From assembly GCA_023263945.1 (NCBI GenBank), contig JALQTW010000001.1, positions 117,741 to 181,740 on the forward strand: a stretch of 64,000 nucleotides of DNA, read 5' to 3'. Position numbers and translations under genes: made by a program. This document shows, in pieces, positions 42,758-42,842 of the stretch. The notes below the pieces were generated by a model, which was not told where the DNA came from, made no database searches, and worked only from the letters and a program-made list of their open reading frames with translations. The DNA comes from Patescibacteria group bacterium. Lineage in GTDB: Bacteria > Patescibacteriota > Gracilibacteria > Peribacterales > Peribacteraceae. Every line of letters begins with the position of its first letter. Within the stretch, counting starts at the first letter, position 1.

Positions 42758-42842
42758 GGCCAAAGTCCAAATACCAAAGGTCAAACAATTTTTAAATATT
42801 AAAATTTGTTTGGTATTTGACCTTTGTCATTTGGTATTTACC
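42758..42842. repeat. quasi-palindrome between rnhA and the VanW-family gene
   Basis: GGCCAAAGTCCAAATACCAAAGGTCAAACAA ... TTTGTTTGGTATTTGACCTTTGTCATTTGGTATTTACC. CAAAGGTCAAA and CAAATACCAAA each have perfect complements in the right arm, in permuted order. Confidence 0.7.

Follow-up and report, generated by a model that had tools for sequence, protein, structure and literature searches.

Heptad-armed foldback repeats of word family E at putative -35 positions of predicted leaderless promoters in a Peribacteria-like genome

Genetic context of the three word copies

The window, i.e., the whole 64,000-nucleotide stretch analyzed here, corresponded to C11:117741-181740 of a 1.46-Mb, 47.7% G+C assembly (source genome G000), and positions without a contig are those of the window. 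The first-pass annotation had placed the word CCAAATACCAAA at 42767-42778, 47741-47752, and 56640-56651 and had read it as a promoter module; all three copies were exact and lay on the plus strand, and two further one-mismatch copies, both on the minus strand, were found at 42809 and 56717. These five matches (three exact plus two one-mismatch) compared to 0.31 expected in the window, and none of 100 shuffles reached five; the whole genome contained seven exact copies. The 14-mer GCCAAATACCAAAT, said to be common to two copies, was indeed found at 47740 and 56639 only, and the right-arm sequence TTTGGCATTTGGCA ascribed to the 56.6-kb element was located at 56717.

The three copies (Table 1) resided in different genetic contexts: (i) an RNase H-like gene ended on one side of the 42.7-kb spacer and a VanW-domain gene began on the other (Pfam), (ii) the 47.7-kb copy preceded an M16 peptidase gene (Pfam), and (iii) the 56.6-kb copy was located between divergent sufS (Aminotran_5) and a gene for a 980-aa membrane protein without Pfam match. 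The gene assignment of the 42.7-kb spacer was thereby corrected (Pfam). The right arm of the 42.7-kb element adjoined the stop codon (42843) of the RNase H-like gene, and the element read as minus-strand RNA had a predicted fold of -30.4 kcal/mol followed by UUUUC. No Rfam match at gathering thresholds was found in the three window spacers (42.7, 47.7, and 56.6 kb).

Three side features were observed around these loci. Two abutting perfect 26-nt palindromes (TAGCGGCAGCTCC/GGAGCTGCCGCTA and TAGCAGCGAGCCA/TGGCTCGCTGCTA) occupied 47774-47823 next to the 47.7-kb E arm; this doublet had a GTAG head on the minus strand, was nearly identical at the orthologous site of the congener G001, and looks like a REP doublet, not a part of family E. 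A small unlisted gene at 47832-47877 (plus strand) resembled that for ribosomal protein L34 (MLGKTRWRRRLRRHGFLARSKSKTGRK...), with its start at 47870 behind TTGGCA-17-TACAAT-9-ATG, and the 47.7-kb spacer was therefore a divergent one (M16/rpmH). Mechanically called ORFs crossed the arrays, giving false N-terminal extensions of VanW (42777), M16 (47846), and the 980-aa gene (56680), and the recF and ruvC reading frames ended inside E arms at C11:589419-589517; as a warning for annotation, ORFs are routinely over-extended through heptad arrays, at the N-termini of the former three and as C-terminal tails of the latter two.

Table 1. Coordinates of features at the E loci of the window, together with PF05635 genes and heptad microsatellites elsewhere
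Feature	Position	Strand	Evidence or remark
E palindrome, left (CAAA-reading) arm, RNase H-like/VanW spacer	42755..42788	.	nhmmer C11:160495-160528; inverted repeat; word 42767-42778 inside
E palindrome, right (TTTG-reading) arm, RNase H-like/VanW spacer	42806..42839	.	nhmmer; inverted repeat
Extra E-type heptads outside the 42.7-kb palindrome	42713..42735	-	inverted repeats
Likely VanW -35 box TTGGCA	42725-42730	-	promoter scan: TTGGCA-16-TACAAT
VanW putative -10 box TACAAT (42703-42708) and GTG (42694-42696), 6 nt apart	42694..42708	-	both conserved in congener G001
Single E arm upstream of M16 peptidase gene	47738..47767	-	nhmmer
M16 putative -35 box TTGGTA, inside the word	47746-47751	-	TTGGTA-17-TAGACT-8-ATG
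M16 putative -10 box TAGACT (47723-47728) and ATG (47712-47714)	47712..47728	-	promoter geometry
E palindrome, left arm, sufS/980-aa gene spacer	56628..56661	.	nhmmer; inverted repeat
sufS putative -35 box TTGGTA, inside the word	56645-56650	-	promoter scan
E palindrome, right arm, sufS/980-aa gene spacer	56700..56733	.	nhmmer; inverted repeat
Putative -35 box TTGGCA facing the 980-aa gene	56718-56723	+	promoter scan
sufS putative -10 box TATAAT (56623-56628) and ATG (56611-56613)	56611..56628	-	top hit of promoter scan, 10/12; start agrees with G001 orthologue
980-aa gene putative -10 box TATCCT (56742-56747) and ATG (56758-56760)	56742..56760	+	flank and start conserved in G001
sufS promoter			putative -35 TTGGTA, spacer 16 bp, -10 TATAAT, gap 9 nt, ATG
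M16 peptidase promoter			putative -35 TTGGTA, spacer 17 bp, -10 TAGACT, gap 8 nt, ATG
980-aa membrane gene promoter			putative -35 TTGGCA, spacer 18 bp, -10 TATCCT, gap 10 nt, ATG
VanW promoter			putative -35 TTGGCA, spacer 16 bp, -10 TACAAT, gap 6 nt, GTG
Eight PF05635 genes, G000	C11:23938, C11:363157, C11:389153, C11:456590, C22:39042, C22:56616, C22:240986, C66:9684		
Heptad microsatellites, G050	C4:38326-38378, C10:50528-50580, C11:17358-17438, C4:127632-127677		

Anatomy and copy number of family E

The word was rejected as a free-standing motif and recognized as two units of a degenerate heptad array: CAAA at 7-nt spacing (at least three units) occurred 15 times, compared to 0 to 6 times at spacings of 5, 6, 8, 9, and 10 nt. 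The E arm was a 34-nt run of degenerate heptads, namely AAAKNNC x4 and then AAACAA, with the column consensus AAATGCC AAATGCC AAAGGCC AAATGCC AAACAA. A genome census with the arm HMM (nhmmer) identified eight inverted arm pairs plus about four single arms on four contigs. The arms were inverted in such a way that the TTTGGCA units pointed outward, and the CAAA..TTTG arm order was kept in all five pairs in G000 and all nine in the same-class genome G050; the family displayed the inverted terminal arms and multiple dispersed copies expected of MITE/foldback elements.

The genes beside E copies (sufS, sufC, M16, VanW, Nudix, recF, ruvC, and rpmA) had no common function. An E arm supplied a putative -35 box at both the sufC-like gene C11:108513-109298 and sufS (55372-56613), and an Fe-S regulon was considered and rejected; because the other E neighbors were functionally unrelated, the sharing of E arms by sufS and sufC was treated as coincidence.

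Promoter geometry

A promoter model was rebuilt from 737 genes having at least 40 nt upstream. TANNNT started at -12 in 99 of these genes, against a background of about 12 per position, with shoulders at -13 to -15 (215 genes for -12 to -15 together); most transcripts are therefore predicted to have their 5' end on the start codon or right beside it, and the earlier description of the promoters as leaderless agrees with a genome that appears broadly so. When promoters were aligned on the -10 box, T-T-(G) appeared 23 bp upstream, equal to a 17-bp spacer, and TTG lay 16 to 18 bp from the -10 box in 43 of the 215 promoters of G000.

The start codons of E-adjacent genes were fixed by comparison with G001 (about 75% amino-acid identity). 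The minus-strand TTGGTA of the word had been claimed as the -35 box of both sufS and M16, and it did occupy the -35 position there, with spacers of 16 bp and 17 bp and -10 boxes ending 9 nt and 8 nt before the start, respectively; likewise, the right-arm TTGGCA of the 56.6-kb element, claimed to face the divergent gene, was found 18 bp from TATCCT, which ended 10 nt before the start of the 980-aa gene. The word at 42767 did not provide the putative -35 box of VanW, which instead lay within the extra heptads at 42713-42735. The same geometry was observed at three loci outside the window, namely both sides of C11:596221-596291 and sufC at C11:109321 (spacers of 16, 17, and 17 bp). All seven E-adjacent promoters hence had TTGGNN 16 to 18 bp from a -10 box that lay 6 to 10 nt before the start codon; chance for a 7-bp ladder to be in register in 7/7 cases was (3/7)^7 = 0.003, a soft figure as the choice of -10 box was free at two loci (16 or 18 bp for sufS; 17 or 19 bp for C11:109321).

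The unit hexamers TTGGTA, TTGGCA, and TTGGCC matched TTGACA at 4 to 5 of 6 positions, and TTGG-type -35 variants were also present in non-repeat promoters of G000. The 16- to 18-bp geometry was not found at the five other 5'-facing E arms; rpmA (C22:132172) seemingly used its own TTGCAA further downstream than its E arm. At several leaderless promoters, outward E units most likely provide the primary sigma factor with its -35 box, and we infer from promoter geometry that RNA polymerase makes use of these boxes.

Two other promoter readings were tried and rejected: (i) sigma-54 recognition of the TGGCA units, since a 7-nt array does not place GG and GC 12 nt from each other, and (ii) the Bacteroidetes-type -33 TTTG/-7 TAnnTTTG arrangement, since the -10 box was an ordinary TAnnnT at -12 and the units lacked TAnnTTTG. 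In G050, no -10 peak at -12 was detected and the leaderless geometry was absent.

Genome-wide heptad arrays and their orientation

About 208 lag-7 arrays were detected genome-wide, compared to at most 42 at any other lag, and 135 of the 208 were mostly intergenic; tandem 7-nt units in at least three copies with a non-coding excess place them in the class of intergenic heptanucleotide repeats. Nearly all of the longer spacers in the window consisted of two heptad arrays in inverted orientation, each spacer having a word of its own. At least 10 word families were distinguished, the large ones being CAGAAG (about 50 arms), GAATT (about 50), and CGAG (about 30), while E was small. Arm order was fixed within each family (15/15, 26/26, 10/10, 15/15, and 5/5), and an A/T-skew orientation rule across all heptad families was looked for and not found. 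Octad units accompanied the heptads in a 220-kb sample of G001 (25 lag-7 plus 12 lag-8 arrays), and G000 had 42 lag-8 arrays. Pure heptad microsatellites were observed in G050 (Table 1): (CAAAGTT)8 and runs of CAAAGTC or CAAAAGT with 5 to 12 or more exact copies, so uniform that slippage could vary their length.

Among spacers of 60 to 249 nt, the proportion with an array was 16% (convergent), 13% (divergent), and 21% (tandem), and none of the word families in G000 exhibited orientation bias. Association with gene 5' ends had been set as a test for the promoter module, and it failed in G000: strict E arrays faced a 5' end four times and a 3' end four times, and E arms found by HMM did so about 12 to 13 times and eight times, respectively, without enrichment at 5' ends. 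The palindromic look of divergent spacers had been attributed to promoter arrays; it does not come from back-to-back promoters, because the approximately 208 arrays belonged to many families, mostly had no -35 likeness, and occurred in convergent, tandem, and divergent spacers alike. One E palindrome even lay between the convergent recF and ruvC. In G050, TTTG arrays were the main family (90 pattern hits versus 0 for the reversed control) and lay toward gene 5' ends (36 versus 18, p=0.02), and single arms gave 15 versus 7 (p=0.13); a directional role of TTTG arrays elsewhere in the class is possible.

Sequence comparison with relatives

The sequence comparison was applied to 80 syntenic spacers of G000 and G001, 18 of which had a strong array in G000, G001, or both: 11 in G000 only and three in G001 only, whereas the others had one in either genome, the word being the same in three cases and different in one. 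Arrays were hence confined to one species in 14 of 18 array-bearing spacers, the presence/absence pattern expected of a mobile element. The sufS spacer had a 106-nt element in G000, compared to about 40 nt without E in G001, where the -10 region and both starts were conserved despite the absent E (TACTCT...ATGACC on the flank of the 980-aa gene counterpart). The RNase H/VanW spacer of G001 had a CAGAAG/CTTCTG-unit palindrome in front of the same TACAAT-6-GTG, while the M16 site kept E-like heptads (TTGGCC-16-TACACT-7-ATG). The promoters do not need E, because the G001 sufS and VanW spacers without an E element kept the -10 region and the starts; of the claim of a promoter module, the -35 geometry was borne out, while enrichment at 5' ends and dependence of orthologous promoters on E were not.

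Comparison of filled with empty sites in G000 and G001 revealed no target-site duplication, and no transposase with E-type ends was identified, the only gene found between E-type arms being a PF05635 gene in the same-class genome G040; mobility of E elements is thus suggested by presence/absence. In G012, which belongs to another genus, the orthologous sufS/membrane-gene spacer (L093:2715-2815) contained an E-like palindrome (ATCCAAA.../...TTGGATT); its position, some 55 nt upstream of the -10 box, is too distant for a -35 box. The closest relative of SufS had 54% identity and came from an uncultured Candidatus Peribacteria genome (genome contig scan); a metagenome scan with SufS gave only relatives at 48% identity or less.

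Association with PF05635 genes

PF05635, the 23S-rRNA-IVS/Avd-like four-helix-bundle family, which is not known to be a recombinase or transposase, had eight matches over the curated cut-off plus two weak ones in G000. Inverted heptad arrays, with a different word each, flanked eight of the nine PF05635 genes inspected in G000, and the words concerned (CGAG, GAATT, AGAGTAA, TAGAATA, TTGG/CCAA, GGTAGCA, and CAGAAG) were also seen as gene-less palindromes. Six relatives had 2 to 11 PF05635 copies each. At G040:C39, a PF05635 gene (910-1197, minus strand) had a CAAA arm on one side (817-850) and a TTTG arm on the other (1219-1263), and this locus is an E-type-armed PF05635 cassette of a same-class genome; two cassettes of G050 had arms of other words. 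No E-armed PF05635 cassette was found in G000, where E copies were gene-less. The literature search returned no paper tying PF05635 to heptamer arrays, and the association reproduced in G000 gives experimenters a concrete protein-DNA pair.

Origin and role of family E

With a probability of about 0.6, family E consists of gene-less, broadly MITE-like foldback repeats whose unit looks like a -35 box and has come to serve as one. E is one of at least 10 heptad-armed families filling the spacers of a Peribacteria-like genome; arms of the E kind flank multi-copy PF05635 genes, and heptad elements turn over between congeneric species. Where an arm borders a leaderless start, the outward TTGGCA or TTGGTA unit with a 16- to 18-bp spacer to the -10 box would most likely serve as the -35 box, and this role would be a co-option, not the reason for the existence of the family. 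The coincidence noticed in the first-pass annotation is a real one, but its reading as a promoter module inverted cause and effect.

It is distinctly unlikely that E arrays are dedicated promoter parts, serving as a -35-like ladder or an UP-like platform to recruit RNA polymerase, with back-to-back ladders making divergent spacers palindromic. The -35 geometry at seven promoters, in register at 7/7, the apparent use (by geometry) of both arms in two divergent spacers (56.6 kb and C11:596221-596291), the 5'-facing TTTG arrays of G050, and an array ending 11 nt before a tRNA gene would all fit such parts, but the 5' bias was not found in G000, where a palindrome separates convergent recF and ruvC and arms adjoin stop codons in tandem spacers; moreover, the orthologous promoters of G001 have no E or have another word, other heptad families share the architecture without -35-like units, and the preference of G050 single arms for 5' ends reaches only 15 to 7. 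A second alternative, a palindrome transcribed from the upstream gene and working mainly as a bidirectional terminator or REP-like 3'-end stabilizer with incidental -35 matches, is unlikely. Single arms occur (e.g., at M16), three palindromes lie in divergent spacers where entry of an upstream transcript is not expected, and a simple terminator scan listed none of the elements, although elements begin 0 to 4 nt past the stop codons of the RNase H-like gene and of the ferredoxin-like gene upstream of sufC, one sits in the convergent recF/ruvC spacer, the predicted folds, which have U-rich 3' tails, reach -30 to -36 kcal/mol (z -3.4 to -5.8), and a palindrome of another word family occupies the RNase H/VanW spacer of G001. 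Arm identity at variable positions was 0.44 within elements versus 0.54 between elements (permutation p=0.998), and E-arm pairing is therefore not maintained by compensatory change: each E arm stays near the family consensus independently of its partner arm. This constraint on arm sequence and not on pairing would suit promoter parts, and it would also suit binding sites for a protein.

Operator arrays for a DNA-binding protein polymerizing at a 7-bp register are very unlikely; the protein could be a repressor of the ribbon-helix-helix type such as omega of pSM19035, a nucleoid protein, or PF05635 itself. At least 10 different words in a 1.46-Mb genome would require many specificities, E-neighboring genes share no function, and no binding protein was identified. 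In favor of operator arrays are the conserved unit repeated four to five times in direct and inverted orientation at promoters, the heptad arrays flanking PF05635 genes (8/9 inspected in G000), and similar paired arrays of Geobacter metallireducens that were proposed as global-regulator sites (PMC2700814). A bolder reading takes heptad-armed palindromes as the ends or relics of a widespread selfish PF05635 cassette, the protein of which would read or make the 7-nt register, and E copies as portable outward -35 ladders in Peribacteria, which are leaderless and lack Shine-Dalgarno sequences; it is rather unlikely, but if true, neighboring genes would have their transcription rewired each time an E copy is gained or lost, in a genome that has few regulators.

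Promoters of candidate-phyla-radiation bacteria have hardly been described so far, and the literature search found nothing on promoters or intergenic repeats of Peribacteria/Peregrinibacteria. The present results suggest that a fast-turnover repeat donates -35 boxes to leaderless genes, which would give a small genome with few regulators an easy means of altering expression from one close species to another.

Comparison with known systems

Word family E is now placed within a poorly understood class of bacterial heptamer repeats, and several known systems share some of its features. In heptad operator arrays of ribbon-helix-helix repressors (e.g., omega of pSM19035), each 7-bp unit is bound by the cognate repressor. 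Correia elements of Neisseria, like other MITEs or IS ends that carry outward promoter parts, are small, palindromic, multi-copy, and intergenic, their ends can supply promoter hexamers to the neighboring gene, and their transcripts fold as hairpins; they are bounded by ordinary terminal inverted repeats, duplicate a TA target, and have a history of transposition that is known, whereas the arms of E are tandem heptads and neither a target duplication nor a transposase was found for them. The 23S rRNA IVS/PF05635 cassettes are heptad-flanked in nearly all inspected copies of G000 and relatives, while the E copies of G000 carry no gene. REP/BIME elements are intergenic palindromic repeats mobilized by RAYT transposases (PMC3733652); E was rejected as a member, having no GTAG/CGTC head (arms start with AAATGCC and end with AAACAA) and being longer and internally periodic.

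Direct heptamer repeats include STRR and (TTTTGAA)n of Nostoc (bioRxiv 10.1101/2022.06.06.494920), GGGAATC of Xanthomonas/Nostoc (PMC4692102), and TAACTGA of Beggiatoaceae (PMC4679880). They resemble E in having a 7-nt unit repeated three to four times or more, an intergenic location near promoters or start codons, and a variable copy number, and TTTTGAA of Nostoc belongs to the TTTG type as well; they are mostly direct repeats of one exact unit, while E has degenerate units, a fixed 34-nt arm, and inverted pairs. Paired tandem hepta-/octanucleotide sites of classes 1 to 3, e.g., (MTYCTGA)x5, were reported in G. metallireducens (Aklujkar et al. 2009, PMC2700814), and their function was only guessed at, as IHF/HU or global-regulator sites. 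G. metallireducens belongs to a different phylum from G000, and neither a -35 box nor a PF05635 link was described there (PMC2700814). The sites nevertheless match the G000 arrays in their three to five tandem 7- to 8-nt units, opposite-strand pairs at variable distance, and intergenic multi-copy occurrence; they are absent from the sister species (PMC2700814), and their class 3 unit is the same as the commonest unit of G000, CTTCTGA.
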